From NCBI GenBank assembly GCA_963840265.1, contig CAWIYA010000002.1, positions 612,289 to 676,288 on the forward strand: a stretch of 64,000 nucleotides of DNA. Direction: 5' to 3'. The translations under genes and the position numbers were made by a program. Below the pieces are notes generated by a model. It was not told the origin of the DNA, did not search any database, and saw nothing but the letters and a program-made list of their open reading frames with translations. Positions 23,169 to 54,864 of this stretch are shown here, piece after piece (the first letter of the stretch is position 1; the number at the start of each line of letters is the position of its first letter). This stretch comes from an uncultured Chloroflexia bacterium. Its GTDB lineage: Bacteria > Chloroflexota > Anaerolineae > Anaerolineales > Villigracilaceae.

Positions 23169-23794
23169 CAGCCATACGAATACTCCTGGTGGATGACCAC
23201 GCCGTCGTTCGCAGTGGGTTGAGCAAATTCCTGATGGTCAACAAAGACCTTGAATTGGTCGCCGAGGCCTCGGATGGAGCCGAAGCAATCCAAATGACTG
23301 GCTTGCACAAGCCCGATGTGATACTAATGGATCTGATGATGCCAGGGATGGACGGCATTTCGGCTACGCGAGAGATCCATAAAAAATACCCCATGGTTAA
23401 GGTGATCGCCCTGACAAGTTTCTCAGAGCAAAACATGGTCCAGGGCGCTCTGCAGGCTGGAGCTATCGGGTTCCTGCAGAAAAATGTCACTGCCGTGGAA
23501 TTGGGAAGTGCCATTCGTTCCGCCCATGCTGGACGCATGACCCTTTCCCCCGAGGCGGCGCAGGCTCTTGCTCAGACAGTAACCCTGTCTCACCTGCCAG
23601 GTAACGGGTTGACCGATCGGGAGAGGGATGTCCTGCGCTGCATGGTGGAGGGACTGAACAATAACGAAATTGCGGAGAAATTGGTCATCAGCCTAGGTAC
23701 GGTAAAGTTTCACATTTCGAATATTTTCCAGAAACTTGGCGTCGACAGCAGAGTCGAAGCAGTCAAGCTGGGCATCGAACAAAAAATAATCTAA
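23165..23794 (+). CDS. NarL/LuxR-family response regulator
   Basis: 209 aa. The REC domain has LVDDH and the phospho-acceptor DVILMDLMMPGMDG. The C-terminal LuxR HTH reads LTDRERDVL...NNEIAEKL. A 4-nt overlap couples it to the kinase gene. Confidence 0.9.
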   Translation: MTAIRILLVDDHAVVRSGLSKFLMVNKDLELVAEASDGAEAIQMTGLHKPDVILMDLMMPGMDGISATREIHKKYPMVKVIALTSFSEQNMVQGALQAGAIGFLQKNVTAVELGSAIRSAHAGRMTLSPEAAQALAQTVTLSHLPGNGLTDRERDVLRCMVEGLNNNEIAEKLVISLGTVKFHISNIFQKLGVDSRVEAVKLGIEQKII

Positions 23795-23841
23795 TCTCCC
23801 ATTGTTTAAGTTTAGCTGCGACTCGAGTCGCCGATAATATA

Positions 23842-23883
23842 CCTATCCGTTCGGCTAGGTAAAACCTCGACCTACGGCAGGCG
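23842..23883 (+). repeat. box element, copy J (the only plus-strand copy, upstream of a plus-strand gene)
   Basis: CCTATCCGTTCGGCTAGGTAAAACCTCGACCTACGGCAGGCG. The box ends about 63 nt upstream of ATG 23925. Confidence 0.6.
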
Positions 23884-23924
23884 CTATTCCATTTCGTAAA
23901 GCGTAAACTTCAGGCGAGGTAAAA

Positions 23925-24287
23925 ATGAAACGCATCTTAATCGCAGATCCAGATCCGGCTTTCAGAAAGGCTCTGGCCCTTTTGATCGCACAGAAACTGG
24001 ATATTAACCAGATATCGGAAGCCGCTGATACAGGGACCCTGATCCAAATATTATCGGACACCTGCCCTGACCTTTTATTACTTAACTGGTCCATTCATGG
24101 TGTTCCGGGACCCGAGACCTGCGTCCTATTAAAAAATACCTATCCCGACCTGAAGATAATCCTGCTCAGCCTGAACCCGGAGGATGCTGATGCCGCTCAC
24201 GCGGCAGGTGCCGGATTTATTTGCAAGAGTGGTTCACCTGAAGATACCCTTTTGGCTCTTAAGTCGATCCTATCAAAAGGAAATTAA
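23925..24287 (+). CDS. stand-alone receiver-like protein lacking the phospho-acceptor Asp (pseudo-receiver)
   Basis: 120 aa with a REC fold (ILIADPDP...LLLLNWSIHG...LLSLN...ICKSG). Asn sits where the neighbouring regulator has Asp (ILMDLMMPG). Confidence 0.7.
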   Translation: MKRILIADPDPAFRKALALLIAQKLDINQISEAADTGTLIQILSDTCPDLLLLNWSIHGVPGPETCVLLKNTYPDLKIILLSLNPEDADAAHAAGAGFICKSGSPEDTLLALKSILSKGN

Positions 24288-25106: not shown

Positions 25107-27947
25107 ATGGATCTGAAAACCACTCTCTCCAGCATCCTTCCTGAAGAGCGCATCCTGACGAGTCCGCTCGAGCGCTATGCATATGCAAACGACGCATCCT
25201 ATTTCAGATTGATCCCGCAAGCAATTGTACAGCCCATCTCGATCGATGAGATCCGCAGCCTGTTCCAATTTTCACAGCGGAACCGTATTCCCATTACTTT
25301 CCGCGCCGCTGGTACCAGCCTTTCAGGACAGTCCATCAGCAACGGCATTTTGGTTGTTCTTTCACGGTACTGGGGAAACGTCCGGGTGGAAGACGGTGGC
25401 GCCCTTGTGCGTGCCCAGCCTGGTGTGGTGGGAAGCTTCATCAACAATGTTCTCAAGCCCTACGGACGCCGCATTGGTCCCGACCCGGCCTCCCTAGACG
25501 CAGCCATGTTGGGAGGAATTCTAGCCAACAATTCCAGCGGGATGTGCTGCGGGGTGGCGGAGAATGCTTATCACACCGTCCACTCGTTGACGTTGATTCT
25601 GCCAAACGGACTGGTACTGGATACAGGCGCACCAGATGCTAATGCGCGGTTCCGGGAGGGAGCCCCCGAGATCGCCAACGGCCTGCTCGAATTGCGCGGG
25701 CGTTTACTTGCGGATGCCGCACTATCAGAACGCGTGCTCCTCCGGTACCAGACGAAGAATACCGATGGCTATTCGCTGAATGCACTGCTCGATTTCGATA
25801 ATCCCAAAGACATCCTGACCCACCTCATGATCGGCTCGGAAGGCACTTTGGGCTTCATTGCCGAGGCAGTGCTACATACTCTGCCTGATTACACGCGCAA
25901 ATATACGGGTCAACTATATTTCCGGAACATCCAGGATGCGGCCAAAGCAATAGAATCTCTGCGCGATTCGGGGGCGCGTGCAGCCGAAATCATGGAGCGT
26001 GCTGCCCTGCGCTCAGTGGAGAACCTGGCTGGGGCACCAATCATCCTGCGCCAATTACCAGATTCGGCTGCCGCCATCCTGGTGGAATATCAGGGCAGCA
26101 CCACGGAGGATATCATCACTTTTCAAAAGATCTCAGCCCGCATAGTTCGGGGTATGCACTTGCTGTACGACCCAGAGTTTACGGAAGATCCGCTCGTCCA
26201 GGCAAACCTATGGAAATTAAGAAAAGGCCTGTTCCCCACCATGGGTGCCATGAGACCCAGGGGTTATTCTGTTATGACGGAAGATCTGGTGTTCCCGGTA
26301 CCGTGCCTGGCTGAAGCCATCACCGACTTGAAATCCAAATTCCAAGGTCATGGCTACGAGGATGCAATTATTTTTGGACACGCCAAAGATGGCAACCTGC
26401 ACGTCAACTTCAGCTGCCTGCTCAACAGCCAGGAGGAAATCCTGCGCCTGGAGCGCTTCCTGGACGATATGCTTGGATTGGTAAGGAAAAAGTATGATGG
26501 TGCGCTGAAGGGGGAACATGGGACTGGGCGCGCCGTGAGCCCATATCTGGAAGCTGAGTGGGGACGCAACGGCCTTGCAATCATGCAAGATATCAAGTCA
26601 CTTTTTGACCCCTCCGGCATGCTCAACCCGGATGTAATCATCAACCTCAACACCCGCTCCCACATCTCGGACATCAAGGATATGCCCCCGGTAGAAGAGG
26701 AAGTGGACAAATGCATCGAGTGCGGGTTTTGTGAAGCACGCTGTCCCAGCCGGCGCCTAACCCTGACCCCACGCCAGCGCATTGTGATTCGGCGTGAAAT
26801 CGCCCGGCTCCACAATTCAGAAACGGATGCCCCCCTGCTATATACTCTTTTGACCGATTTCAAATATGCCGGCCTGGATACCTGCGCTGTGGACGGGTTA
26901 TGTGCTTCAGCCTGCCCGGTAAACATTAACACCGGCGATTTGACCAAGCACTTGCGGGCCGATCTGGTGACCCCGCTCGCTGCAAAAAATGCACATTGGC
27001 TTGTGAAGCATTTTAGGGGGGTGGAGAAATCCCTGGCCGCTGGTGTTAAACTCGGGCATGCGGCCGAATCGGTCATTGGGGCGAAGGCCATCACAGGGCT
27101 GACTCGTATTGGCGAAAAAATCTCAGGGATGACCCTTCCCAAGTGGAACACAGCCGTGCCATATGTCCCAGCGAGGCGTCCCGTAACCCAACGAGCAGGT
27201 GCGGATTATATATACTTCCCCTCCTGCATCTCGCGGCGTTTGGGAGTCCCTAAACAAGGCATGTTTTCGCTGGCCGAAACTATGGTCACAGTTGCAAAAA
27301 GAGCGGGAGTTTCGCTGTGGATTCCGGAGGATGTGGATGGCAACTGCTGCGGTATGCCATTCGGCTCCAAGGGCTACACAGCCGCGTACAAAGTCATCCG
27401 TCGGCGAACCCTGGAGCGGTTCTGGGAATGGTCTGAAAAGGGGCGCCTGCCAATCATAATCGACACCACATCCTGCACATATACCCTGCGCCAGTATGCT
27501 GGTAACCTCTCCGACCTGACACCCGAAGAGCGCGTCATTTTTGAGAAACTCACCCTTCTTGATGGACTTGAACTGATGCATGATGTACTACTGCCTGGGC
27601 TGGACGTACAGCAGGTGACTGATGCGGTGGTATTGCATCCCAACTGCTCGAGCCGCAAATTAAACCTGCAAGATAAAATGGTTGCCATTGCAAGCCGGTG
27701 TGCAAAAACAGTTACAGTGCCTCTCAACCTGGATTGCTGCGCTTTTGCTGGTGATCGCGGTTTGCTCTTCCCCGAATTGACCGACTCAGCCACCTCCCTG
27801 GAAAGCGCTGAAGTTAACGCCCGTCCCTACGACGGATACTATTCATCCAATATCACGTGTGAGATGGGCATGACGCTTGCCACCCAGCACAATTACCACT
27901 CCATTATCTACCTGCTGGAGAAAGCATCACGTGATTCCTCCCAATGA
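25107..27947 (+). CDS. fused FAD-binding / Fe-S-binding oxidoreductase (Dld-II / YdiJ-like D-2-hydroxyacid dehydrogenase)
   Basis: 946 aa. It has an N-terminal FAD-linked oxidase domain (FRAAGTSLSGQS), ferredoxin-type motifs CIECGFCEARCP and CAVDGLCASACP, and C-terminal CCG-type repeats (NCCGMPFG, DCCAFAGDRG). Confidence 0.8.
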   Translation: MDLKTTLSSILPEERILTSPLERYAYANDASYFRLIPQAIVQPISIDEIRSLFQFSQRNRIPITFRAAGTSLSGQSISNGILVVLSRYWGNVRVEDGGALVRAQPGVVGSFINNVLKPYGRRIGPDPASLDAAMLGGILANNSSGMCCGVAENAYHTVHSLTLILPNGLVLDTGAPDANARFREGAPEIANGLLELRGRLLADAALSERVLLRYQTKNTDGYSLNALLDFDNPKDILTHLMIGSEGTLGFIAEAVLHTLPDYTRKYTGQLYFRNIQDAAKAIESLRDSGARAAEIMERAALRSVENLAGAPIILRQLPDSAAAILVEYQGSTTEDIITFQKISARIVRGMHLLYDPEFTEDPLVQANLWKLRKGLFPTMGAMRPRGYSVMTEDLVFPVPCLAEAITDLKSKFQGHGYEDAIIFGHAKDGNLHVNFSCLLNSQEEILRLERFLDDMLGLVRKKYDGALKGEHGTGRAVSPYLEAEWGRNGLAIMQDIKSLFDPSGMLNPDVIINLNTRSHISDIKDMPPVEEEVDKCIECGFCEARCPSRRLTLTPRQRIVIRREIARLHNSETDAPLLYTLLTDFKYAGLDTCAVDGLCASACPVNINTGDLTKHLRADLVTPLAAKNAHWLVKHFRGVEKSLAAGVKLGHAAESVIGAKAITGLTRIGEKISGMTLPKWNTAVPYVPARRPVTQRAGADYIYFPSCISRRLGVPKQGMFSLAETMVTVAKRAGVSLWIPEDVDGNCCGMPFGSKGYTAAYKVIRRRTLERFWEWSEKGRLPIIIDTTSCTYTLRQYAGNLSDLTPEERVIFEKLTLLDGLELMHDVLLPGLDVQQVTDAVVLHPNCSSRKLNLQDKMVAIASRCAKTVTVPLNLDCCAFAGDRGLLFPELTDSATSLESAEVNARPYDGYYSSNITCEMGMTLATQHNYHSIIYLLEKASRDSSQ

Positions 27948-27994
27948 ATTCGGAGGGTGGAGTAACTCAGGCACCGTTGTTGTTATTAATAATA

Positions 27995-28023
27995 ACCGGG
28001 CAGGGATTGGAAACCTGCCCGGT
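27995..28023. terminator. hairpin between convergent genes
   Basis: 10-bp stem ACCGGGCAGG/CCTGCCCGGT with a 9-nt loop, followed by CATGTTTT. Confidence 0.65.
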
Positions 28024-28056: not shown

Positions 28057-28890
28057 TTAGGGTGCCAAATCAAGGTCTTTAAAAGCTTCGACCTGAAACC
28101 GGATGGCGCGTTCGGTCGGGAGACGTTCAATGGATGATGCACCGAAGAAACCAACAATGCCGGGCATCTGCTTCAATGCCTTGCCAACATTCTCAGGCTC
28201 ATCAAATGGTCCTCCATGGCATATCACCATCAAATCCTTGCGAACAGACCACCCCGCTTCAGCGATAATCATCACCTTTTCGATGGCTTCTTCAAGAGTG
28301 AAGGCGACAGCCGCTCCTATACTACCGGCGGTGGTCAGGCCAACATGACCCACCAGCAGGTCGGCTCCGGCTTTGGTCATGGCTTTTGCTTCGTCTGCGG
28401 TGAAAGCGTAAGGTGTGGTGAATAGATCCATCTCGTGTGCAAGGCGGATCATTTCGACCTCTTTATCATAGCCCATGCCACTGGCCTCCAAATTGGCACG
28501 GAACTTGCCGTCGAACAAACCAACAGTCGGGAAATTTTGCACGCCTGAAAAGCCTATCTCTTTCAATTGTTTCAAAAAAACGGACATCAATCGAAATGGA
28601 TCGGTTCCACAAACTCCAGCTTGAACCGGGGTGTCCTTTACAACCGGCAATACCTCTGCTGCCATTTCGACAACAATGCCATTGGCATCGCCATATGGCA
28701 GTAATCCCGCGAGAGAGCCGCGGCCAGCCATCCGATAGCGTCCCGAGTTGTAAATGATGATGACGTCAGCACCACCAGCTTCGGCGAACTTTGCGGAAAT
28801 CCCAGTCCCTGCCCCACACCCAACGATCGGTTTTCCAGCTTTCACCTGGGTCTGCAGGCGCTTGATGATCTCTTTGCGTGAAATTGTCAT
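28057..28890 (-). CDS. phosphoenolpyruvate hydrolase-like TIM-barrel protein (PF09370 type; partner of Tm-1-like proteins)
   Basis: 277 aa. GCGAGTGISAKFAEAGGADVIIIYNSGRYRMAGRGSLAG resembles the PEP-mutase/isocitrate-lyase-like fold. It is a paralogue of 61301..62158. Confidence 0.7.
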   Translation of the reverse strand: MTISRKEIIKRLQTQVKAGKPIVGCGAGTGISAKFAEAGGADVIIIYNSGRYRMAGRGSLAGLLPYGDANGIVVEMAAEVLPVVKDTPVQAGVCGTDPFRLMSVFLKQLKEIGFSGVQNFPTVGLFDGKFRANLEASGMGYDKEVEMIRLAHEMDLFTTPYAFTADEAKAMTKAGADLLVGHVGLTTAGSIGAAVAFTLEEAIEKVMIIAEAGWSVRKDLMVICHGGPFDEPENVGKALKQMPGIVGFFGASSIERLPTERAIRFQVEAFKDLDLAP

Positions 28891-28902
28891 TGCGAATATC
28901 TC

Positions 28903-30114
28903 CTATTTTTCCAGCATGTTCAACAAGATTTGAGCTGCCCTGTCGGCGAATTCAGGATCATTTACATTATTGTCCATTTCTATGACCGGGATGCCCGGCC
29001 TGAGATTCTTTTTTATGGCCTCAAAACAGGCGCGATCTGCCTCTGGGTCCCAAAACGCACATCCGAGACTATCCAGTTGCGAAACTCCCTTGAGCGGGAT
29101 CAAGATGACAATCCAGGATGTGGCGGCGTTGGCAGCGGCAGCAATCATCCCCCCGATGCGCTTATTTTCTTCAGCGTTGGTACGCAGCAAAGTGATATTG
29201 GGATTCCATTGATACAAATTGCGGGACTTGAATTTATCGGGGACGGTTTCGATCCCCCAAAAGTTCGCCATATCCACGCAGCCCGGAACGAGAACTGCCG
29301 GGATGCCGGCGCGCGAGGCAGCCAGGCAGCGGTCGGGACCCGCGCTCAACACTCCTCCGCACACCTCATCGGCAAGCTCGGTGGTGGTGATGTCCAATAC
29401 TGCCGTAATATAGCCGTCGGAGATCAGACCTTCCATTGTCCTGCCTCCCGTGCCTGTGGCATGAAAGACCAAGACTTCATAACTGCGATTCTCCAGAACG
29501 CCACGCGCCCGATCCACGGCAAGGGTAGTATTTCCAAACATCGAGGCTGCGATCAATGGTTTCTCCTCGTCTCCTTTGACGGTTTTCATTTTTACCATTC
29601 CGGTAATTGCCCCCACGGCATTGCTATAGATGGTGCGGCTGATTCGATTGAAGCCAGCCACATCCACAATAGACGGAATGAAAATAATATCCCGGGTTCC
29701 GATGTAGGCACTGACATCCCCTCCACCCAGGGTGGACACCATTACTTTAGGAATGCCCACCGGCAGGCCGCGCATCGCCGCGGTCGTGAGGGATGTCCCA
29801 CCGCCACCACCCATCCCGATGATCCCATCCAACCTGCCCTCGTCGAAAAGGCGGCGAACAACCACAGTTAAGCCAGCCGCCATGACCCGCATGGCTTCAT
29901 CCTTATGGCCGCCGGAAGCCAGGAAGGATAAATCTCCACCGCCTGCTTTTGCCACTTCCTGGCGTGTAATATCTGGTGCAAAGGTGGGTTCCCCCAACAC
30001 ACCAAAGTCAATCACCAAGGTTCCGATATCTTCTTTCCGAATCAAGTCCTTTAGATAAGCAAATTCCTGACCTTTTGTGTCCAGGGCTCCGGTGATGACA
30101 ATCGTTTTGGTCAT
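28903..30114 (-). CDS. Tm-1-like ATP-binding protein (UPF0261 family), copy 1
   Basis: 403 aa. It has the N-terminal IVITGALDTKGQEFAYLKD and the MGGGGGTS motif. It is a paralogue of 37051..38289 and 60071..61291. Confidence 0.75.
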   Translation of the reverse strand: MTKTIVITGALDTKGQEFAYLKDLIRKEDIGTLVIDFGVLGEPTFAPDITRQEVAKAGGGDLSFLASGGHKDEAMRVMAAGLTVVVRRLFDEGRLDGIIGMGGGGGTSLTTAAMRGLPVGIPKVMVSTLGGGDVSAYIGTRDIIFIPSIVDVAGFNRISRTIYSNAVGAITGMVKMKTVKGDEEKPLIAASMFGNTTLAVDRARGVLENRSYEVLVFHATGTGGRTMEGLISDGYITAVLDITTTELADEVCGGVLSAGPDRCLAASRAGIPAVLVPGCVDMANFWGIETVPDKFKSRNLYQWNPNITLLRTNAEENKRIGGMIAAAANAATSWIVILIPLKGVSQLDSLGCAFWDPEADRACFEAIKKNLRPGIPVIEMDNNVNDPEFADRAAQILLNMLEK

Positions 30115-30125: not shown

Positions 30126-30884
30126 CTAGAAAAAAATTAGCAACAAAGCTGTAATTACCAGCAGAACAAGAATGATGTTATCGAAAATATTCTTCGATAC
30201 CTTGGTCACCAACCAGCGTCCAATCCAAACGCCAAATGGGACAATCGGGAACACCCATGCAACCTGCCAGAGCAGGTGGAAGTCGAACATTCCGGTAAAG
30301 AAGTAATATGGAACTTTGACCCAGTTGAGAATGGCATAGAACAAAACGGAGGTTGCAACGAATACTGCCGGAGTTACATCATGAAGCATGAGATAAATAC
30401 TAATAGGAGGCACGCCACTATGGGCCATTGCAGATGTAAAGCCTGACGTGGTTCCAGCCAACCAGCCATGCCAGTTTTTCTCCTGATATTTCACCGAACC
30501 GATGATACGCTTTTCGAGAAGCTTGTAAATAACAAATAACAATGCAATGATAGCCAGCCCGATCTTGAGCACTTGAGTGGAGACATTGGTTATGAAATAA
30601 GTACCGATTGTCACTCCTACTACTGCGCCTGGGATCAACAACCTGACCAACCGCCCGTTCCAGCGTTTCCAATGGAAAGCAATTGAGAACACATCCGCAA
30701 GCAACATAATAGGTAGCAACAAGCCAAGAACCTCATTTACAGGCATTACCAGCGCCATCAACGGCGTTGACAAGGTTCCCGCCATTCCACCCAATCCGCC
30801 TTTCGACAAGCTGACTAATAACGTGACGGCTGCAAGCATGATTAAAAATACAGTCGGATTATTTGTCATTATTTTTGGCTCCAA
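30126..30884 (-). CDS. TauE/SafE-family anion exporter-like membrane protein
   Basis: 252 aa, about 8 TM segments, Gly-rich helices (LSKGGLGGMAG). The start (30884 or 30869) overlaps the 3' end of the AOR gene. Confidence 0.65.
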   Translation of the reverse strand: MEPKIMTNNPTVFLIMLAAVTLLVSLSKGGLGGMAGTLSTPLMALVMPVNEVLGLLLPIMLLADVFSIAFHWKRWNGRLVRLLIPGAVVGVTIGTYFITNVSTQVLKIGLAIIALLFVIYKLLEKRIIGSVKYQEKNWHGWLAGTTSGFTSAMAHSGVPPISIYLMLHDVTPAVFVATSVLFYAILNWVKVPYYFFTGMFDFHLLWQVAWVFPIVPFGVWIGRWLVTKVSKNIFDNIILVLLVITALLLIFF

Positions 30885-32691
30885 GCGAATCCGAAATTCC
30901 TAGCTCATTCAACCGCAACAGGGTTGGAACGCCATTCATGTCCCATCCCATGATGCGATAGTATTCATCAAGCATTGGTTCAAGATCAACCACCTGCCCG
31001 CCGGCAGAACCAACAACCATTGGCTGAGTCAGGTTGCGAGCCGGCAGAGTATCTGCGGCACGGGAAAACCCTTCGCGGACATTGAACAGACGAGACAGGG
31101 TTGAGATGCGCTCCCCAAGTCGCTCCAAATCCGACACTTTGGGATAGTCAAAACCCGTCGCAGCCTTAACCAACTGCCACAATTCCTTGAGGGTCATCCC
31201 ATATCCGGGGAAAGCGCATAAACATGCACTATCCCAAACGGCTTTATCGGCCTGGTGATCGCGGAACAGCTGCGGTTTTCCTTCTATCGTCAGCGGATTG
31301 GCAGCCCCGCTAAATATCTCGCCCAGCGGGGCACCGCGCAGGTGACAGGCTCCGCGTTCAGAAACTGCATAAGCCAGCGCCGTACCCTTGGCCGCGTTGG
31401 GGTGATAGGCGGGCATTTCCAGCCCTTTGACATGCATTGCGAACGCCTCAATTTCAGGGAAGCGTTTTGCAATTGCAGCCACTCCCTGTACCAACCAAGT
31501 GCCACAGCCCTCACCTTTGGCCATTTTCTCTACCAGTGCAATTGCAGCATCTGCATTCCCCCAGGTTGGGGAAATTCCATCCAGTACATTTGAAGACACA
31601 ATGCTACGCTCGAACATCTCCATTATGAGACCGACCACACCGCCCACGCTGATCGTATCCAAACCATATTCATCGCACAGCCAATTAAGCCGGATAATTG
31701 CGTCACGGCTGCCGATGGCGCAGTTCGACCCAAGTGCATAGATGGTCTCATATTCCGGCCCCTCAATAACTTTGCCATCTTCCAGGGGTGAGGTCCATTT
31801 GCCACAACCGATCGGGCAACCAAAACAGGCATACTCATTTTTCCAGCTATTCTGCCGGAAGGCGTCGCCGGAAATCTCGTCCGACATATCAAACTGTCCC
31901 TGTTGGAAGTTGCGGGTGGGCAGCGCTCCCATGACATTGATCACCTCGAGGATGTTTGCCGTTCCCTCTTTGCGAAGCATGCTGACGGGACCAGACATGC
32001 GCACCGCCCGGAAGGCCAGCTGCAAGGCACGCTCGTATTGTTTTTTATCGTGGACGTGGACACTCCCGCTGCCACGAACGACGATGGCCTTGAGTTTTTT
32101 CGAGCCCATAACTGCACCAACCCCACCACGAGCCAATGCCCTGCTTTCGTTAAAGATCCCGGCAAGGTTACGCTGCGCCTCCCCGGGAGGACCGATCACC
32201 AGGGATTGCCATTCCTGTCCTAATTCAGTCTTAATTTTTTCTGTTGCCGCGGAGATGGTGGTACCCCACAGATTTTCGGCCGGACGGATTTCCACGCGGT
32301 CGCCATCGATGACCAGCATGACAGGGGTTTGAGCAGCGCCTGTTAGAACCAAGGCATCATAACCCGCATATTTAAACACGTTGCCCCAATAGCCTCCGCA
32401 GTAGGAATCGAAATAGGTGCCGGTGGCCGGGCTCTTGGTAGTCAGGCCGAAACGCCCTGCGGTAGGCGCTGTAGTACCAGTCAGTGGCCCGGTGTGGAAG
32501 ATCATGTGGTTTTCCGGAGAGAGTGGATCCACCCCAGCAGGTTGCTCAGTGAACAACAGCCAGGCTCCCAGCCCTTTACCGCCGAGAATCAGCGGCATTG
32601 CCTCTGCCGGCAAGGATGTAGTTTCAATGGATCCTGTGGATAAATTCACCCGCAAGATGCGGTCGCAGTATGCTCGTTGAGTTAGATCCAT
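30859..32691 (-). CDS. aldehyde:ferredoxin oxidoreductase family (tungsto/molybdopterin) enzyme
   Basis: 610 aa. The N-terminus ILRVNLSTGSIETTSLP...LGGKGLGAWLL is typical of AOR. The [4Fe-4S] motif CFGCPIGC plus a distal Cys (DSACLCAF) is present. Confidence 0.85.
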   Translation of the reverse strand: MDLTQRAYCDRILRVNLSTGSIETTSLPAEAMPLILGGKGLGAWLLFTEQPAGVDPLSPENHMIFHTGPLTGTTAPTAGRFGLTTKSPATGTYFDSYCGGYWGNVFKYAGYDALVLTGAAQTPVMLVIDGDRVEIRPAENLWGTTISAATEKIKTELGQEWQSLVIGPPGEAQRNLAGIFNESRALARGGVGAVMGSKKLKAIVVRGSGSVHVHDKKQYERALQLAFRAVRMSGPVSMLRKEGTANILEVINVMGALPTRNFQQGQFDMSDEISGDAFRQNSWKNEYACFGCPIGCGKWTSPLEDGKVIEGPEYETIYALGSNCAIGSRDAIIRLNWLCDEYGLDTISVGGVVGLIMEMFERSIVSSNVLDGISPTWGNADAAIALVEKMAKGEGCGTWLVQGVAAIAKRFPEIEAFAMHVKGLEMPAYHPNAAKGTALAYAVSERGACHLRGAPLGEIFSGAANPLTIEGKPQLFRDHQADKAVWDSACLCAFPGYGMTLKELWQLVKAATGFDYPKVSDLERLGERISTLSRLFNVREGFSRAADTLPARNLTQPMVVGSAGGQVVDLEPMLDEYYRIMGWDMNGVPTLLRLNELGISDSLGAKNNDK

Positions 32692-32700: not shown

Positions 32701-34026
32701 CTACTCCCGCACCGGGTTAAAATTCGGCCTATCGGCGATGAATATCGCCCCAGTGGGACAGATGCCTGCGCACTCAGGTTTGCCCCTGCACAGATCACAG
32801 ACCACCGGGAACCAGTCTAGCTGTCGTCCATCATCGAAGATAAGACTCCCTTCCGAATGAATAATCACATGTGTTGGGCAGATGTCCACACATTTGGAGC
32901 AATTGTCACAGCGTTCGGGGATCAATTCCACTGCGCCACTCTCAAGGTGCCACCGCAAGGCGTTGGTTGGGCAAATATCGATGCACTTTTTACAAATGGT
33001 GCAGAACATGACCTTATGGTGCCCGGGCTGGCTGCCCAACTGAATCCGCAGGCGCGCTTGATTGAGTCCATAGTCACCGTTGCCGTGGCTGGCTACGCAG
33101 GCTCCCACACATAAATCGCAGCCTGTACACAAGGCAGGCCTGGCTTTCAAGCGCACGAAATCCCAGGTTTTCCCGCGTAAGGCTTCATCCACCGTCCAGC
33201 CGCGATGGCCAATATTGCTGAGTTGTTCGATCATCGCTTTAGGATCCGGAGATTTGGTCACATTACGCCCCATCAAGCAACCGGATGCTCCAGCTTCATG
33301 GGCCTCAGCGTATAGTTCAAGTGCGTCGCGCTCGTTATCTGAACGAGCGCCACCCAGCACCAGGGTGGGTACACCACTGATATCAATCAGGTTTCGGAAT
33401 GAATCCACGTCCCCCGTGTATGGGATCTTGAGAGCGTCAGCTCCGATCTCCACCGCCATGCGGGCTCCCAGGGTAAGAATCTCAACAATATTTGCACCGG
33501 TTACCTGTCCCCCGTACGCCAACGGCTCAATGATACAAGGCAACCCGATCCGGCGGCACTCATTGACGAATTTGGCACACTTATCGATGCCGATGGTCTC
33601 CACTTTATCGCTGTATCCCAAAAACAAATACACCGTGATGGCAGTGGCACCTAATGACAAAGCCTGTTCTGCGGTGATAATTTTCTCATTGATCAGCAAG
33701 CGCTGAGGGACGGCATTACTCACGTTCGAAGTGCCCAAGCGGGGCATATTCATCCAGTCGGCGCGGACTATCAAAGCGGGACCAGCGCGCCCTTTGAATA
33801 GGGGAGCCAAACGAAGAGCTTGTCCGGGAGACAGCAGAATCCCATCCACACCGCCAGCTATCACCGCCTCAACGGTCGCGCGCAGGTTGACCACATTTGG
33901 CGTTACATCACTCATATAGCCATGATCCGCTGCCACGCAAATGGCGCGGCCATCCCCCTGGTGGTTGAACAGCCGGTCCATCCGGTTTTGCAGCCCTGTT
34001 TTCATTTCACGAAACCTCATGGGCAT
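32701..34026 (-). CDS. class I aldolase (DhnA/ADH-synthase type, DeoC/LacD superfamily) fused to a C-terminal polyferredoxin
   Basis: 441 aa. The aldolase motifs are DGRAICVAADHG, LGATAITVY, GADALKIPYTGD (Schiff-base Lys), LGGAR and MGRNV. These are followed by four cluster motifs: CTGCDLCVGAC, CTICKKCIDICP, CDNCSKCVDICP and CDLCRGKPECAGICP. Confidence 0.8.
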   Translation of the reverse strand: MPMRFREMKTGLQNRMDRLFNHQGDGRAICVAADHGYMSDVTPNVVNLRATVEAVIAGGVDGILLSPGQALRLAPLFKGRAGPALIVRADWMNMPRLGTSNVSNAVPQRLLINEKIITAEQALSLGATAITVYLFLGYSDKVETIGIDKCAKFVNECRRIGLPCIIEPLAYGGQVTGANIVEILTLGARMAVEIGADALKIPYTGDVDSFRNLIDISGVPTLVLGGARSDNERDALELYAEAHEAGASGCLMGRNVTKSPDPKAMIEQLSNIGHRGWTVDEALRGKTWDFVRLKARPALCTGCDLCVGACVASHGNGDYGLNQARLRIQLGSQPGHHKVMFCTICKKCIDICPTNALRWHLESGAVELIPERCDNCSKCVDICPTHVIIHSEGSLIFDDGRQLDWFPVVCDLCRGKPECAGICPTGAIFIADRPNFNPVRE

Positions 34027-34780
34027 GCACCAAGTGCTTCATAATTAGCAGCACTGTGCTAGGATCTTCAACTGCGAATATGCCTTCATCAAGCCAGAAA
34101 CCGACTGCTCCAAGCTGCAGGGCTTCTGCGAGAATGGGTTGATTAGATTCCAGGCTGACAGTTCTGACCCATACCGGCAGGCCGCTGCACATGGCTTGGA
34201 TGGTCTTAAAGGATTGCGCTTCAGGCCAGGGAATGATGATGCCATCGGCACCGCCCTCAAGAGCATAAGAGACGCCCAGTTCGATGGCTTTTTTCATCAG
34301 GACTATACGCGGACCAACAGGCTGGACGTCCACCAGCAACGGCATGCCAATCTTGAGCCCGTCCAACGCCAAATTGACCACCTCCTGAATACAACGGGCT
34401 TCTATCTCCTCCTCATGACCAAGGATAAAATGCATCACCAGGGCGTTAGCGCCAAGGTCCAAGGCATCCGCGGGGTTGAGAAGTGGAATATATTGGATCA
34501 TTTCAGGCGGCAGGACGAAGTCAGTCCCACGCAGGGCATTGGTCCAATCTGCACGAATAAGGAGAGCGGCTTCCTGTCGAGTCCGAGTTCCCAGTTTACG
34601 CGCCTGCCCGGGACTGGTGACGATCCCATCCAAAAACGGCAATAACGGGCGGACAGATTCTTCGAAATGTTCCAATCCTGGAAGTACACCCAGAACCAAA
34701 CCATTGCTGGTATCCAAAACCAGGCTGTGCCCATCTGAAGAATTAAGCAACTCATTCAAGCGGTATTGTTTACTATTCAT
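34007..34780 (-). CDS. DhnA-type aldolase-like protein lacking the Schiff-base lysine (probably non-catalytic paralogue)
   Basis: 257 aa, colinear with the aldolase domain of 32701..34026. It reads GADGIIIPWP where the neighbour has GADALKIPYTG, and LDTSNG where the neighbour has AADHG. It overlaps the neighbour by 20 nt. Confidence 0.6.
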   Translation of the reverse strand: MNSKQYRLNELLNSSDGHSLVLDTSNGLVLGVLPGLEHFEESVRPLLPFLDGIVTSPGQARKLGTRTRQEAALLIRADWTNALRGTDFVLPPEMIQYIPLLNPADALDLGANALVMHFILGHEEEIEARCIQEVVNLALDGLKIGMPLLVDVQPVGPRIVLMKKAIELGVSYALEGGADGIIIPWPEAQSFKTIQAMCSGLPVWVRTVSLESNQPILAEALQLGAVGFWLDEGIFAVEDPSTVLLIMKHLVHAHEVS

Positions 34781-36060
34781 ACTTCTCCTCGCAAATAGGG
34801 AATCGTTTGCGGTCCTTCAGGAATGACACATATACGAGCCTGCGAACCGTACTTCGCTTGCAATTGTAAGACAGTTTGCTCAATGTTTCGAGTGGGTATG
34901 AACAACGCCTGCTCGATCTGCCGGTCTGTCAGACCATCACTGTAAACGTACACATCTGCCCGGTGTTGAATTTGAGCCTGGATTTGCACTTGCCACTGGT
35001 CCTGTTCACAGAACCCGGGAATGGAGATCATGTCAATCACACCTTGCGGGGAGCCAGCCTTAACCAGCAAGGCTGCATACCGCCCGTGATTGGGTAAACC
35101 GTCCTCGCAGGCTGCCGCCATTAGAATACTTCCCGCGTCTCGAACGATCTGGTTTGCAGCACTCATGCCTTTCACGGATTGATAAAGATTTTGATCCAAT
35201 GGATAGCCACTATTGGTGGTTATCACAATATCGTAAGGTTTGTCCACCGCGCGCATGGCGTTCTCTCTCACAAATGCGCAACCCTCTGCATGAGCGGAAA
35301 GCATGTCGCCTGCAAAGATGCCAGTAATCTCGCGTTTAACATTGAGGGACACATTCAGCAGGAAGGATGGATTTGTGCGCAATGCCACGGCGCGCATTTC
35401 CTCCCAGATGGGATTCCCTACAAGAACTCCCCAGGTCGCCTTGGGGTGAGCGATCATTTCAAGCCCGTGATTGGTAAAGACACTCTCTGCTCCCGAAAGC
35501 GAGGGAATTACAGCCTTGGGTCCGCCGCTAAACCCGGCAAAAAAATGTGGTTCAATAAAGCCAGTCAGGATGCGAACATCAGCTTCAAGATATGAGCGAT
35601 TGATACGCACCGGATGTCCCAATGAAGTGTCCCCCAGATTAACAAGGTTAGTTTTATCGTTGCAGTCATGCTGGAGACAGCGGTACCCATCCACGATGCG
35701 ATCGCCGAGCATGGCGCGCAACTCGTCTTTGGTTTGCGGACGGTGCGTTCCCAGTCCATTCAACAGTGTGATGTTCTCCCGCGCAATTCCTGCCGACTCC
35801 AATTCAACGAGCAGGACGGGGAGGATGCGATCATTGGGGGTGGCGCGGGTGATGTCGGTATGAACCACCACAACCTGGTCGCCAGGTTTGACAAGTTCTG
35901 CCAAAGGAGGAGATCCAATCGGATTGCGCAAAGCTTCCTGCAGAGCCTCAATCTCATTGGGTAAACCTGGCAAGAAGCGCGGCGCCAAAACGTCCGTTGT
36001 GTCGGGGAGCGTTACGTTCAGACCATAGCGGCCATAAGCCAATTTAATATGCATTGCCAT
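34777..36060 (-). CDS. LarA-family (nickel-pincer cofactor dependent) 2-hydroxyacid racemase/epimerase homologue
   Basis: About 427 aa. It has a DUF2088-type N-terminus with NGLGTHRP and the FAGFSGGPKAV motif, which includes the Lys at the cofactor-tether position. The start is uncertain (36060, 36054 or 36099). Confidence 0.75.
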   Translation of the reverse strand: MAMHIKLAYGRYGLNVTLPDTTDVLAPRFLPGLPNEIEALQEALRNPIGSPPLAELVKPGDQVVVVHTDITRATPNDRILPVLLVELESAGIARENITLLNGLGTHRPQTKDELRAMLGDRIVDGYRCLQHDCNDKTNLVNLGDTSLGHPVRINRSYLEADVRILTGFIEPHFFAGFSGGPKAVIPSLSGAESVFTNHGLEMIAHPKATWGVLVGNPIWEEMRAVALRTNPSFLLNVSLNVKREITGIFAGDMLSAHAEGCAFVRENAMRAVDKPYDIVITTNSGYPLDQNLYQSVKGMSAANQIVRDAGSILMAAACEDGLPNHGRYAALLVKAGSPQGVIDMISIPGFCEQDQWQVQIQAQIQHRADVYVYSDGLTDRQIEQALFIPTRNIEQTVLQLQAKYGSQARICVIPEGPQTIPYLRGEV

Positions 36061-36120
36061 TAAATGGGACACGGATTGGCATGGACCATCATCGCACAAT
36101 CCGTGTCCAGGGTTCCAAAC

Positions 36121-37047
36121 TTAAAATGCCCGGTCAACAAACTCACGGGTATGAACGTTTACGGGGACCTTCATCAACTCAAGAACTCCGCGGGCTGTAT
36201 GTTCCGAAAGCCGGCGAAAAGCTTCTTCGCCTTTCTCCTTGGTGGCGCGCAACGGGTTGCCAATCACGCCGCTCTCGATGAATTCGTGGTGATCCATTGG
36301 GAAAGCAAAGTACTTATAGCCATCAAATTCCACGTCGGGCATGCCGTCTTTTTTCTCGAATGACCTGGGCAGGAATTCCGGGACATGCGCCTTGGTAAAA
36401 TTGGCGCGATCCATACGGACAAATCTCTCATTCCAAGCAAGGTCCTGGGAAGTTTCAAGTTCGCTCGAGTGCCAACCGGGGGTCTCCTCAGGGGGGTTTT
36501 CCATTAATCCTGCAAGAATACCTACATAATTCTCCATATATGGTTTAACAAAGCCAATCAGCGCACCGGTCTCATAGCGCAGTTTGCGCAGGATCGGATC
36601 GACCACTTTAACGTTGGAACCATGACCATTGACAAAGATGATGCGGTTGAAGCCATGATGGATCAGGCTTCGCCCAACATCGTACAGCAGGTTCAACAAG
36701 GTACTGCTGCGCAAGGTGATGGTGCCGCGTCCCATCCCGGGTCTATGCATGTGCTGCGGCGAATAGCCTGTCCAGATGGGCGGGGAATGCAACACTCCAA
36801 TCATCTCCGACACACGGCAGGAAATTTCAATGGCGGTAATTGTATCGGTGTAGATCGGGAGGTGTTGTCCGTGCTGCTCAAAGCTGGCCATCGGCACCAG
36901 GATCGTATCTTTTGTTTTAAGATATTCCTGGATATCAACGTAGGTCAGGTCGCCCAATTCCCACGAAAGGAATTTCTTGCGAAATTCTTCATCTCCTTCG
37001 GTTAGGTGGGGAATATCTCTGTAGTCGCGTCCATTTCCAGTTAACAT
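36121..37047 (-). CDS. creatininase-family metal-dependent amidohydrolase
   Basis: 308 aa. Motifs: EQHGQHLPIYTD, FVNGHGSN and HSSELETS. Confidence 0.75.
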   Translation of the reverse strand: MLTGNGRDYRDIPHLTEGDEEFRKKFLSWELGDLTYVDIQEYLKTKDTILVPMASFEQHGQHLPIYTDTITAIEISCRVSEMIGVLHSPPIWTGYSPQHMHRPGMGRGTITLRSSTLLNLLYDVGRSLIHHGFNRIIFVNGHGSNVKVVDPILRKLRYETGALIGFVKPYMENYVGILAGLMENPPEETPGWHSSELETSQDLAWNERFVRMDRANFTKAHVPEFLPRSFEKKDGMPDVEFDGYKYFAFPMDHHEFIESGVIGNPLRATKEKGEEAFRRLSEHTARGVLELMKVPVNVHTREFVDRAF

Positions 37048-37050
37048 TTT

Positions 37051-38289: not shown

Positions 38290-38348
38290 TTAATACCTCA
38301 AAGAGGCAGGAATGGCAAACATCCACCCCTGCCCCGGGGTTGCAGCAA

Positions 38349-46812: not shown

Positions 46813-46904
46813 TGAAAACCCTTTCAAATAATGTATTCTTGTAGGCAAACTCAAAATGGAGCCAGATACTTCTTAATTGAAATATCGGTGCTTAACGGTC
46901 CACT

Positions 46905-47351: not shown

Positions 47352-47383
47352 AATTGCTCCTAAAACCATCTAATAGGGATGTT

Positions 47384-54861: not shown

Positions 54862-54864
54862 GGC

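Follow-up and report, generated by a model that had tools for sequence, protein, structure and literature searches.

A split Tm-1-like gene pair, UPF0261 and PF09370, in Anaerolineales: comparative evidence for a proposed two-subunit catabolic enzyme

UPF0261 and PF09370 genes of the window

The window is a 64,000-nt stretch of an Anaerolineales (Chloroflexota) genome (contig CAWIYA010000002.1, forward-strand positions 612,289-676,288). An initial annotation proposed that it holds three UPF0261 genes, two of them next to a PF09370 TIM-barrel gene across gaps of 9-12 nt. All three UPF0261 open reading frames lie exactly where it placed them and are full-length, both barrels are borne out by open reading frames and Pfam, and an HMM search upheld both family assignments (PF06792 and PF09370). 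The gaps are 12 nt in module 1 and 9 nt in module 3, with the PF09370 gene 3' of UPF0261. The five genes are:

28057-28890, minus strand: PF09370 TIM barrel of module 1 (PF09370#1), Pfam 410 bits
28903-30114, minus strand: UPF0261 protein of module 1 (UPF0261#1), PF06792 203 bits and PF23189 282 bits
37051-38289, minus strand: second UPF0261 protein (UPF0261#2), PF06792 164 bits and PF23189 222 bits
60071-61291, plus strand: third UPF0261 paralogue, module 3, PF06792 206 bits and PF23189 226 bits
61301-62158, plus strand: PF09370 TIM barrel of module 3 (PF09370#2), Pfam 301 bits

The Pfam cut-offs are 33.8 bits for PF09370 and 27 bits for the UPF0261 domains, and the PF09370 matches span profile positions 1-266 of 267. 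NCBIfam model NF002674 scores 406-565 bits across the three UPF0261 copies (565 for UPF0261#1; cut-off 335). NCBIfam covers UPF0261 with 'hypothetical protein' models only and has no named model for PF09370. An AGGAG ribosome-binding site lies 5' of PF09370#1. A search of the contig index for an exact copy of the window's UPF0261 protein gave no match.

Gene neighbourhoods

PF09370#1 is the final gene of a long minus-strand operon. The features around module 1 are:

27988-28023, minus strand: candidate intrinsic terminator of the module 1 operon, read from the sequence
30126-30884, minus strand: TauE/SafE-family membrane protein (PF01925, 113 bits), directly upstream of module 1
30859-32691, minus strand: aldehyde:ferredoxin oxidoreductase (AOR family; Pfam AFOR_N and AFOR_C)
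32701-34026, minus strand: DhnA/DeoC-type class I aldolase with a fused 2x[4Fe-4S] ferredoxin domain (PF01791 and Fer4 families)
34007-34780, minus strand: second DhnA-type aldolase-like protein
34777-36099, minus strand: LarA-type nickel-pincer 2-hydroxyacid racemase or epimerase (NCBIfam Ni_dep_LarA, 503 bits, cut-off 460)

Both aldolase-like proteins match NCBIfam NF005556 under its cut-off (165 bits for the ferredoxin fusion, 64 bits for the second protein). A TauE-family gene directly upstream of the pair recurs in several related Anaerolineales loci (eight loci, including the window). The TauE/aldolase/AOR block offers two leads: a sulfoquinovose-type pathway, or a 6-deoxyhexose route that would run from lactaldehyde through lactate to pyruvate. 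The operon likely ends at the hairpin at 27988-28023, a putative intrinsic terminator with a perfect, GC-rich 10 bp stem (ACCGGGCAGG / CCTGCCCGGT) and a 9-nt loop, followed by TATTATT. The consensus terminator scan missed this hairpin because its loop is longer than 8 nt; the matches from the consensus promoter and terminator scans were no higher than shuffled expectation.

UPF0261#2 has no PF09370 partner and belongs to a separate orthogroup, with 35-37% identity to the other two window copies. It is surrounded by:

36121-37047, minus strand: creatininase-family protein (PF02633, Pfam 186 bits)
38349-39236, minus strand: xylose-isomerase-like TIM barrel of the ketose or keto-acid epimerase type (PF01261), 5' of UPF0261#2
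39352-40467, minus strand: GlcF-like Fe-S/CCG subunit (Pfam)
40469-41914, minus strand: GlcD-like FAD-linked oxidase (Pfam)

This gene is no lone copy of the pair: its orthogroup consistently pairs with a creatininase-family gene rather than with PF09370. Such a gene is present in 36 of the 46 loci related to UPF0261#2, and is directly 3' of UPF0261 in most. UPF0261#2 belongs to a clade in which a creatininase-family protein takes the place of PF09370 as partner. The creatininase-family gene has weak NCBIfam matches to creatininase, MftE and IolN, and the barrel at 38349-39236 matches IolO (140 bits) and psicose epimerase (131 bits), all under cut-off. The barrel's position 5' of UPF0261#2 is conserved in related loci, and the GlcF-like and GlcD-like genes are kept upstream in 27 loci.

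Module 3 lies in a plus-strand operon with the following genes:

59227-60057, plus strand: xylose-isomerase-like TIM barrel (Pfam), opening gene of the operon
62155-63102, plus strand: Fmt/ArnA-like formyltransferase-fold protein (Pfam Formyl_trans_N and Formyl_trans_C)
63116-64000, plus strand: class II (metal-dependent) ketose-bisphosphate aldolase family (PF01116, 189 bits), truncated by the window end

The position of the opening barrel is conserved, with a RuBisCO-like protein instead in some loci. The formyltransferase-fold gene (NCBIfam matches under cut-offs) is directly 3' of the pair in about one third of the module 3 orthologous loci, and the class II aldolase is conserved 3' of the module in about half. 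Orthologues of PF09370#2 (65-96% identity) occur in Chloroflexota, Spirochaetota, Planctomycetota and Poribacteria. Most module 3 loci have no classical sugar kinase beside the class II aldolase, and the module 3 UPF0261 is the sole kinase candidate in its operon, whose closing gene encodes a class II ketose-phosphate aldolase. As a separate aldolase is already present in this module, that role is not open to PF09370 there. The neighbours named by the initial annotation (TauE, AOR, creatininase family, xylose-isomerase-like barrels, formyltransferase-like) are correct by Pfam.

Coupling and distribution of the pair

UPF0261 is directly upstream of, and on the same strand as, 47 of the 64 PF09370 genes in one genome set, and in a second set of greater diversity it lies within four genes of PF09370 at 36 of 46 loci. 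This adjacency is far beyond chance, and the two families co-evolve (PMC5028733). The pair forms an autonomous cassette, the flanking genes of which vary. The C-terminal barrel of tomato Tm-1 shares 62% identity with PF09370#1, and the matches of both PF09370#1 and UPF0261#1 to Tm-1 agree with the earlier statement that the two domains are fused in the plant protein. In the window they are separate open reading frames, divided by a stop codon and the 9-12 nt spacer, hence the split form.

Both families occur widely across bacteria, archaea, fungi and plants, and PF09370 comprises 3141 clusters at the 50% identity level. The presence of three modules within 35 kb had been called an unusual enrichment. 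The triplet is real, but it is conserved in the lineage rather than specific to this genome, and the modules are old paralogues: a related Anaerolineales MAG has the same three-module layout on a single contig (CAWHGD010000002.1; loci L002, L172 and L094). Some rhizobial plasmids carry three to four copies.

The neighbourhood comparison recovered recurrent partners in catabolic operons of a sugar-type context, as had been proposed. Recurrent neighbours are sugar ABC transporters, Gfo/Idh/MocA dehydrogenases, xylose-isomerase-like barrels and RuBisCO-like proteins, along with a dedicated cupin or a fused VOC domain. Amidase-type genes also recur (FmdA/AmdA, creatininase family, M24 peptidase, cyclase/formamidase family), as do amino-acid transporters. 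An M24 Xaa-Pro/creatinase-fold gene is found in rhizobial operons and a cyclase/formamidase-family gene at the Thermomicrobium locus, and in the Thermoanaerobacter cassette FmdA/AmdA and an amino-acid permease are the only other genes. The Thermomicrobium and Gluconobacter loci include aromatic or xenobiotic-type genes, some loci resemble detoxification clusters, and TetR regulators control several pairs. One Vibrio plasmid copy lies amid restriction-modification, Abi and integrase genes.

At three independent metagenomic loci, all lacking UPF0261, PF09370 has an unrelated kinase of the APH family as its fusion partner. These loci are sugar-acid clusters (apionate lactonase, HpcH/HpaI aldolase, DUF1537 kinase, class II aldolase, FAD oxidase), with a DUF1537 kinase gene adjoining one of the fusions. 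The fusions are rare, being singleton clusters on short metagenomic contigs, and a search for them in plasmids and species-representative genomes returned ordinary PF09370 genes only.

The UPF0261 subunit

Tm-1 had been regarded as the only studied family member, without an assigned enzymatic activity. That view is outdated: MarK (Saro_1862 of Novosphingobium aromaticivorans; crystal structure PDB 9MPY; JBC 2025) is a stand-alone UPF0261 kinase of phenolic hydroxyls that converts ATP to ADP, with acetovanillone and related phenols as substrates (PMC12624787). UPF0261#1 matches MarK 9MPY with E 1e-62 and Tm-1 with E 2e-74, and the UPF0261 model has a TM of 0.90 to Tm-1. In the alignment, D12-T13-K14, G194 and H218 of UPF0261#1 correspond to D14-T15-K16, G195 and H219 of MarK; the Tm-1 residue of the D-T-K motif is K20. 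LDTKG is present in all three window copies. Across 155 homologues the D-T-K motif is 96-100% conserved per orthogroup, and the equivalents of Gly195 and of the acceptor-contacting His219 do not vary in any copy. Homology identifies the UPF0261 subunit as a predicted MarK-type ATP-dependent phosphotransferase.

Unlike the invariant ATP motif, the pocket positions in these homologues are group-specific. Five of the seven acetovanillone contacts of MarK differ in module 1 (T196N, F283M, I285N, H304W, H348L), and no window copy retains the set Thr196, Phe283, Ile285, His304 and His348; the residues at these positions are N/F/V/H/P in UPF0261#2 and I/V/V/H/Y in module 3. The window copies share 35-41% identity and form three separate orthogroups (gap-free identities, average linkage), none of which includes MarK (31-32% identical to the window copies). 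Single-linkage clustering on the Biopython 'identity' distance lumped all sequences together and was set aside. A fold search with the UPF0261 model found nothing informative beyond the family, returning GT-B-like two-Rossmann matches only (TM < 0.3).

The PF09370 barrel

The AF2 model of PF09370#1 (pLDDT 95.7) has a TM of 0.94 to PDB 2P10, with 56-57% sequence identity (E 5e-103). The two window barrels are 41% identical to each other. Stand-alone PF09370 proteins are 57-92% conserved across phyla, and the conserved residues are D42, N70, D97, N119, E144, D177, H182, H225 and S252. After 2P10, the closest folds found by Foldseek are 2-methylisocitrate lyase, carboxy-PEP mutase and dimethylmalate lyase (probability 1.0, E 6e-12, TM 0.57-0.62, rmsd about 5 A, 13-16% identity), and NanE epimerases score nearly as high. 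Members of the PEP mutase/isocitrate lyase superfamily are TIM barrels that stabilise enolate-type intermediates of alpha-oxo/alpha-hydroxy acids, and K(K/R)CGH is the active-site loop signature of ICL/PrpB. This signature is absent from both window PF09370 sequences, and their sole C-H-G string (C224-H225-G226) is not conserved in PF09370#2.

PF09370 also occurs at the N-terminus of sigma54 enhancer-binding proteins and of AraC regulators encoded immediately beside UPF0261-PF09370 operons. H182, T186 and H225 are kept in PF09370#1 and in 23 of 23 non-regulator copies. All ten regulator-fused copies examined (sigma54 or AraC) retain the pocket residues but lack H225, which is Y or E; H182 and T186 are replaced in sigma54-type fusions (five and four copies, respectively) and retained in the AraC type. 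Such a residue pattern is that of a putative dead-enzyme sensor derived from a live enzyme.

Literature searches on UPF0261, PF09370/PF06792, COG5441/COG5564, Mll9387 and 'PEP hydrolase' returned MarK, the Tm-1 evolution paper and incidental mentions only, and a search on IolN and diketo-inositol gave almost wholly irrelevant returns. In this literature one catalytic activity was found for UPF0261 (MarK, 2025, without a partner) and none for PF09370; no assay of PEP or phosphonopyruvate hydrolysis by PF09370 was found, and the hydrolase name comes from a structural-genomics deposit. The earlier statement that the bacterial pair has no established biochemical function stands, as none was found.

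Predicted function and alternatives

The comparative evidence argues for the pair being a two-subunit catabolic enzyme. The initial suggestion of an ATP-dependent enzyme activity, as opposed to a structural role, is supported by MarK, the lyase-like folds and the kinase fusion; the phospho-enol or 2-oxo-acid substrate suggested with it is putative. Tentatively, and at slightly less than an even chance, we predict that the pair is a split, ancestral Tm-1 in which a kinase subunit and a TIM barrel act on a sugar-derived metabolite. UPF0261 would phosphorylate a hydroxyl of a small carbohydrate-derived keto/acid compound, an enolic or alpha-hydroxy-carbonyl oxygen being most plausible. The PF09370 barrel, with its putatively PEP-mutase/isocitrate-lyase-like fold, would bind the same metabolite and then catalyse an enolate-type reaction, whether C-C cleavage, isomerisation or removal of phosphate or carboxylate, possibly using H182 and H225 at the ends of strands beta6 and beta7. 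The two subunits may then constitute a KdgK/KdgA-like kinase-plus-lyase funnel that delivers an unusual intermediate (a sugar, cyclitol or sugar acid) to central metabolism. The paralogues are ancient and differ in pocket residues, and therefore the three window modules should have three different substrates. The UPF0261#2 module may use a creatininase-fold hydrolase instead of PF09370. Weighing against the prediction are MarK's activity on aromatics without a PF09370 partner, the modest similarity of the barrel to the lyases and its lack of the K(K/R)CGH signature, the separate aldolase of module 3, the amidase-type, amino-acid-transporter, detoxification and aromatic contexts, and the singleton status of the APH fusions.

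An unlikely but not far-fetched alternative is ATP-driven activation, in which UPF0261 transiently phosphorylates a carbonyl, enol or imidate oxygen and PF09370 finishes the reaction with release of phosphate, completing hydrolysis in the manner of an ATP-dependent lactam or cyclic-amide hydrolase such as 5-oxoprolinase, or C-C bond formation as in a PEP-carboxylase-like carboxylation of an enol phosphate. The recurrence of amide-hydrolase-type genes beside the modules (creatininase, M24, cyclase/formamidase, FmdA/AmdA), the formyltransferase-fold gene after module 3, and the fact that MarK's phenol substrate is an enol analogue are consistent with activation. However, MarK yields a stable phosphorylated product and ADP (PMC12624787), the contexts are mostly carbohydrate-type, and the 3' phosphate-dependent aldolases suit a stable phospho-intermediate. 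A creatininase neighbour does not demand an amide substrate, because the family includes a cyclitol-dione C-C hydrolase (NCBIfam IolN model). MarK, the sole assayed family member, could also suggest that the modules are kinases for lignin-derived or other phenolics, serving aromatic catabolism or detoxification, and the aromatic/xenobiotic-type genes at the Thermomicrobium and Gluconobacter loci and the TetR control of several pairs would fit. We consider this quite improbable: the acetovanillone contacts differ in module 1 and differ again in modules 2 and 3, MarK is distant in sequence and outside the three orthogroups, the window contexts are sugar-type, and no acv/hpe-type biotin carboxylase or phosphatase genes lie near the modules.

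It is improbable that PF09370 is non-enzymatic, a ligand-sensing or phospho-accepting regulatory partner that controls, or is modified by, UPF0261. The domain does head the sigma54 and AraC regulators adjoining the operons, and its old name is 'TIM-barrel signal transduction protein', but the fused copies have lost H225 (and, in the sigma54 type, H182 and T186) whereas every stand-alone copy retains these residues. Stand-alone PF09370 also has no output domain and is fused elsewhere to kinases and VOC enzymes, and its cross-phylum conservation, together with its identity to the Tm-1 barrel, is typical of a constrained active site. An antiviral (anti-phage) role like that of plant Tm-1 is very improbable. 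Tm-1 binds ATP, and binds and inhibits the tobamovirus replicase, but the full-length protein is thought to serve some function besides ToMV resistance (PMC5028733). Apart from the Vibrio plasmid copy among defence-type genes, the genes sit almost always in catabolic operons that include transporters and regulators. None of seven proteins matched PADLOC-DB at E <= 0.01, and a defence role is therefore unsupported.

Returning to the kinase-plus-barrel prediction, a wider form of it is possible but doubtful: a new two-component enzyme, distributed from Chloroflexota and haloarchaea to fungi and plants, that would act on a keto acid or dione from a sugar or cyclitol, phosphorylate its enolic or alpha-hydroxy-carbonyl oxygen and then perform an enolate step in a His-pair barrel, this being the ancestral metabolic function of Tm-1. 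If so, the catalytically dead PF09370 copies would represent a new type of sensor domain through which sigma54 and AraC regulators detect small molecules, and UPF0261#2 would, by its creatininase-fold partner, exemplify a second two-component module type parallel to the first. Knowing the reaction of the pair would allow thousands of genes to be annotated, would explain the non-antiviral role of plant Tm-1, and would probably supply a step still missing from sugar-acid or cyclitol catabolism. In the window, a single organism offers three diverged modules whose operon partners are defined, and the comparison suggests tractable hosts (Sinorhizobium, Rhizobium, Haloferax volcanii, Thermoanaerobacter) as well as residues of interest (K14 and H218 in UPF0261, H182 and H225 in PF09370).

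Comparison with known systems

Tm-1 (PDB 3WRV-3WRY) is one fused polypeptide of about 754 aa, whereas the window modules consist of two genes. MarK has the same two-domain UPF0261 architecture as the window copies, but it is a homodimer without a PF09370 partner, acts on aromatics and not on sugars, and its gene belongs to an operon for acetovanillone carboxylase rather than to one for sugars. The acvCDEF/hpeCBAD carboxylase-phosphatase operon is absent around the window modules, the neighbours of which are TauE, AOR, aldolases, LarA and others.

Mll9387 of Mesorhizobium japonicum (PDB 2P10), a structural-genomics entry deposited as 'putative phosphonopyruvate hydrolase', belongs to the PF09370 family and is likewise encoded directly 3' of a UPF0261 gene. 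Alongside these two genes its operon encodes a cupin, a Gfo/Idh/MocA oxidoreductase and a sigma54 regulator whose sensor domain is PF09370, and the window has none of the three; the dedicated cupin partner of other genomes was also missing from the window by tblastn (best E 0.49). To the PEP mutase/isocitrate lyase superfamily the similarity of the barrel is modest, and the conserved residues differ from those of PF09370.

DUF1537 kinases, which have a non-classical fold, phosphorylate keto/acid sugars and are encoded in operons with xylose-isomerase-like isomerases and class II aldolases. These acid-sugar kinases (OtnK/OiaK type) have no sequence or fold relation to UPF0261. They and KdgK/KdgA resemble the pair in working mode, which is an analogy rather than membership of a common family.

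UPF0261 and PF09370 genes in the window

The ORF listing matches exactly the coordinates that the initial annotation gave for three UPF0261 and two PF09370 genes, and Pfam upholds both families for all five:

PF09370#1 (module 1): 28057-28890, minus strand, PF09370 (Pfam, 410 bits)
UPF0261#1 (module 1): 28903-30114, minus strand, PF06792 + PF23189 (Pfam, full length)
UPF0261#2 (module 2): 37051-38289, minus strand, PF06792 + PF23189 (Pfam, full length)
UPF0261#3 (module 3): 60071-61291, plus strand, PF06792 + PF23189 (Pfam, full length)
PF09370#2 (module 3): 61301-62158, plus strand, PF09370 (Pfam, 301 bits)

The neighbors named there (TauE, AOR, a creatininase-family gene, xylose-isomerase-like barrels and a formyltransferase-like gene) were all borne out as well. 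The best named homologues are from MAGs of Anaerolineales/Chloroflexota. An NCBIfam search returned no model for PF09370, and UPF0261 was matched solely by 'hypothetical protein' models. The paired genes are separated by 12 nt in module 1 and by 9 nt in module 3. An AGGAG site lies 5' of PF09370#1; on the 3' side of the gene are a perfect 10-bp hairpin and then a T-rich tail. Module 1 is thus the end of a long operon on the minus strand.

UPF0261/PF09370 is an already known conserved-hypothetical gene pair. UPF0261 co-evolves with the 'TBST' domain, which is PF09370, and is present in 97% of bacterial genomes containing TBST (Yang et al., 2016; PMC5028733). COG5441-COG5564 is also among the top linked pairs in a phylogenetic-profiling paper. 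No reaction was found assigned to the pair, or to PF09370, in the literature searched.

UPF0261 subunits

The initial annotation took Tm-1 to be the sole studied family member, with no enzymatic activity assigned. This is contradicted by MarK (Saro_1862), a Novosphingobium aromaticivorans protein of the UPF0261 family: it uses ATP to phosphorylate acetovanillone as well as further ketones and aldehydes of the phenolic type, releases ADP, and is presented by its authors as the family's first catalytic function (PMC12624787). In the MarK structure (9MPY, 1.57 Å), the acceptor is held by Gly195, His219 and His348 of the C-terminal domain, and a putative ATP site, including D14-T15-K16, is in the N-terminal domain (PMC12624787). 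Apart from MarK, only the N-terminal region of Tm-1 and 2P10 (Mll9387, an unassayed structural-genomics entry for PF09370) have solved structures.

The catalytic scaffold of MarK is conserved in UPF0261#1: D12-T13-K14 aligns with D14-T15-K16, G194 with Gly195 and H218 with His219, whereas the remaining five contact positions differ (T196N, F283M, I285N, H304W and H348L). Across 155 homologues and MarK, D12, T13, K14, K123, D151, N156, G194, H218, D241, E246, R262 and R311 are essentially invariant, and the pocket positions are constant inside each orthogroup and variable between orthogroups. The three window copies represent three separate orthogroups (35-41% pairwise identity; 31-32% to MarK).

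Pocket residues of the UPF0261 orthogroups and MarK
Group 1: N/M/N/W/L
Group 2: N/F/V/H/P
Group 3: I/V/V/H/Y
MarK: T/F/I/H/H

In these alignments, the three UPF0261 subunits have the look of active kinases, each with a specificity of its own. The AF2 model of UPF0261#1 (pLDDT 90) superimposes on Tm-1 with TM 0.90 and on MarK with TM 0.65, the lower model-based value likely due to a different domain arrangement. A fold search with this model found no informative relative beyond the family itself.

PF09370 as a putative enzyme and a putative sensor

In its AF2 model (37-sequence alignment, pLDDT 95.7), PF09370 folds into a (beta/alpha)8 barrel that matches 2P10 at TM 0.94. The next nearest folds are lyase-like (2-methylisocitrate lyases, carboxyvinyl-carboxyphosphonate phosphorylmutase and 2,3-dimethylmalate lyase), with ManNAc-6-P epimerases close behind. 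The lyases and the phosphorylmutase belong to the PEP mutase/isocitrate lyase superfamily and match at TM about 0.6 and 13-16% identity; the isocitrate-lyase loop signature was not found in PF09370.

Searched exhaustively, 1.84 billion representatives yielded 3141 PF09370 clusters. Pfam scans of long matches and cluster look-ups identified four kinds of architecture:

(a) UPF0261::PF09370; the cluster includes tomato Tm-1
(b) PF09370::APH-family kinase; three independent cluster representatives
(c) PF09370::sigma54-AAA+::HTH and PF09370::AraC-HTH regulators
(d) PF09370::VOC; a VOC domain fused to PF09370 in one locus

Polar residues D42, R53, S59, N70, E79, D97, N119 and P121 are common to every architecture, as are T122, D127, R131, E135, E144, D177, S252 and R256. 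H182, T186 and H225, at or just past the C-terminal ends of strands beta6 and beta7, separate the putative enzymes from the regulators. Of the sequences examined, 23/23 stand-alone, Tm-1, APH- and VOC-fused ones keep all three, and all ten sigma54- and AraC-fused ones have Y or E in place of H225. Changes of H182 to N/D (five sequences) and of T186 to N (four sequences) are confined to sigma54-type fusions; the AraC-type fusions retain both residues. A91 is F in seven of the ten regulator-fused sequences. The simplest reading is that the regulator-fused domains would be dead-enzyme sensors, which bind the same ligand and have lost turnover, and this makes the H182/H225 pair candidate catalytic residues. 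From fold and residue pattern we predict that the non-regulator copies behave as an enzyme.

Regulators with PF09370 sensors are encoded immediately beside UPF0261-PF09370 operons in Thermoanaerobacter, in an AraC-type cassette and in rhizobia. The Thermoanaerobacter locus (L300, 10001-14109) is a minimal cassette of sigma54 regulator, UPF0261 and PF09370, and the only other genes tied to it encode a divergent FmdA/AmdA-family amidase and an amino-acid permease. The AraC-type cassette (L303, 10001-13374), likewise minimal, has the order regulator, UPF0261, PF09370. Both would be good systems for ligand identification.

UPF0261 is absent from all three loci with PF09370::APH fusions, which are singletons on short metagenomic contigs. 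Immediately upstream of each fusion is a FAD_binding_4/FAD-oxidase_C gene with overlapping stop and start codons. The surroundings (short-chain dehydrogenases, 2-hydroxyacid dehydrogenase, HpcH/HpaI aldolase, apionate lactonase, apiosidase, xylose-isomerase-like barrel, DUF1537 acid-sugar kinase and class II aldolase) are typical of acid-sugar catabolism. Thus, UPF0261 is replaceable by an unrelated kinase for small molecules, which most strongly indicates a functional unit made up of a kinase plus PF09370.

The pair as an autonomous cassette

Genetic coupling is tight. We compared 80 species-representative loci with close relatives of PF09370#1 (75-92% identity) from Chloroflexota, Syntrophobacteraceae, Spirochaetia, Gammaproteobacteria, Caldiserica, Verrucomicrobiota and others. 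UPF0261 is immediately upstream of PF09370 on the same strand in 47/64 cases, and the flanking genes vary widely. In a second, more diverse set (Actinomycetota, Bacillota, Acidobacteriota, Planctomycetota and others), the two lie within four genes of each other in 36 of the 46 loci. The pair is an autonomous cassette.

The commonest third partner is a small, highly conserved cupin (17/46 diverse loci), which was looked for within the window and is absent; in the one locus with a PF09370::VOC fusion, the VOC domain stands in for it. Annotated plasmid copies are compactly arranged. The pSym plasmids of rhizobia such as S. meliloti or R. leguminosarum encode TetR, then UPF0261-PF09370-cupin-M24 peptidase, with a sugar ABC transporter alongside; haloarchaea have an isolated PF09370-cupin-UPF0261 cassette, and a Vibrio conjugative plasmid has TetR, then UPF0261-PF09370-DUF1097. 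Haloferax volcanii also has a plasmid copy (NC_013964.1). The operon of the crystallised Mll9387 is UPF0261-PF09370-cupin-Gfo/Idh/MocA-sigma54 regulator, an arrangement kept in Mesorhizobium, NGR234 and Terrarubrum. Rhizobial loci of this type carry an extra, shortened PF09370 gene (196 aa), divergent from the UPF0261 gene and missing the C-terminal third of the barrel, H225 included:

L217, 3360-3950
L218, 3356-3946
L088, 6051-6641

Operons of modules 1 and 2

Module 1, an orthogroup of Tm-1 type, is terminal in an operon that starts at ~45.6 kb with xylulokinase (TIGR01312, 573 bits, above cut-off), a short PfkB kinase and xylose-isomerase-like barrels. A GlcD/GlcF-like oxidase, UPF0261#2, the creatininase-family protein and a LarA-type racemase follow, then two DhnA-type aldolases (one with a fused ferredoxin domain), AOR, TauE and module 1.

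The creatininase-family gene (36121-37047, minus strand) has counterparts with UPF0261#2 relatives in 36 of 46 related loci (Chloroflexota and Trueperaceae), mostly directly downstream, so that a different fold takes the place of PF09370 in this clade. The conserved block is PfkB, xylose-isomerase-like barrel, GlcD-like, GlcF-like, a further barrel, UPF0261, creatininase family, LarA and aldolases. The creatininase-family protein scores similarly, always below cut-off, against NCBIfam creatininase, MftE and IolN (3-dehydro-scyllo-inosose hydrolase), and the best match of the barrel upstream of UPF0261#2 is IolO (5-keto-L-gluconate epimerase), also below cut-off. This hints at a variant of the Thermotoga-type cyclitol pathway (36121-39236, minus strand), with UPF0261 inserted between IolN-like and IolO-like genes.

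The racemase (34777-36099, minus strand) is of the nickel-pincer type (NCBIfam Ni_dep_LarA, 503 bits against a cut-off of 460). Its position in a sugar-catabolic operon, beside GlcD/GlcF-like 2-hydroxyacid oxidases, fits a route from aldehyde to 2-hydroxyacid, then racemisation and oxidation. One protein (32701-34026, minus strand) combines a DhnA/DeoC-type class I aldolase with a C-terminal 2x[4Fe-4S] ferredoxin domain, a fusion that appears unusual, and is encoded directly upstream of AOR (30859-32691, minus strand). This suggests that the aldehyde product is passed to AOR, with the fused ferredoxin accepting electrons. The TauE and AOR frames share 26 nt (30859-30884) when read from the earliest potential start codon; TauE may in fact begin further downstream.

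Four xylose-isomerase-like barrels and two Gfo/Idh/MocA oxidoreductases are densely clustered at 45643-57314, followed there by genes for a ROK regulator and for a sugar ABC transporter of CUT1 type, the latter with two ATPase genes. The cluster resembles 3-keto-sugar or inosose pathways. Elsewhere (20790-24287, plus strand), genes for a multi-PAS HisKA_3 histidine kinase (20790-23168), an unannotated 209-aa ORF (23165-23794) and a single-domain receiver (23925-24287) lie just upstream of a convergent FAD-oxidase/Fe-S fusion gene (25107-27947).

Module 3 operon

Module 3 has orthologues (65-96% identity) among Chloroflexota, Spirochaetota, Planctomycetota, Poribacteria and Hydrogenedentota. 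The kept order is regulator, xylose-isomerase-like barrel or RuBisCO-like protein, UPF0261, PF09370, formyltransferase-like gene, class II ketose-phosphate aldolase, and E2 + E1 of a 2-oxoacid or acetoin dehydrogenase. The end of the window cuts off the aldolase gene, whose start is at 63116. Most orthologous loci lack a classical sugar kinase near this phosphate-dependent aldolase, which fits UPF0261#3 as the pathway kinase, as far as gene context indicates.

In some orthologous operons (L103, L104, L106 and L122), the barrel directly upstream of UPF0261 gives way to a RuBisCO-like protein (6285-7712 in L103; form IV type, Pfam RuBisCO_large 140 bits). At the left window edge, an ORF (65-547, plus strand) BLAST-clusters with the class II aldolases that follow module 3 in orthologous loci, and may be a second copy, or piece of one.

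Proposed mechanism and alternatives

The gene context is mainly carbohydrate or acid-sugar. We tentatively predict that the hydroxyl phosphorylated by UPF0261 belongs to a keto or acid compound derived from a sugar or cyclitol, and that it is possibly enolic, by analogy with the phenolic acceptor of MarK. PF09370 would then carry out an enolate-type step using H182 and H225, the pair acting as a kinase-plus-lyase or kinase-plus-isomerase funnel. The main rival, ATP-driven activation followed by hydrolysis or carboxylation, draws support from the recurrence of amidase-type neighbors and amino-acid transporters; we regard it as unlikely.

A purely regulatory role for PF09370 is improbable. We give slightly less credence again to the modules being MarK-like phenol kinases. 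A role in defence is highly improbable, and a PADLOC search returned no match.

Three observations may be stated here for the first time: the UPF0261 clade partnered with the creatininase family, the PF09370::APH fusions within acid-sugar clusters, and the loss of H225 (in the sigma54 type also of H182 and T186) in regulator-fused PF09370. The family reaches from bacteria to plant Tm-1, and its reaction is now directly testable. In tomato Tm-1 the C-terminal barrel is 62% identical to PF09370#1. MarK acts as a homodimer without a PF09370 partner (PMC12624787).
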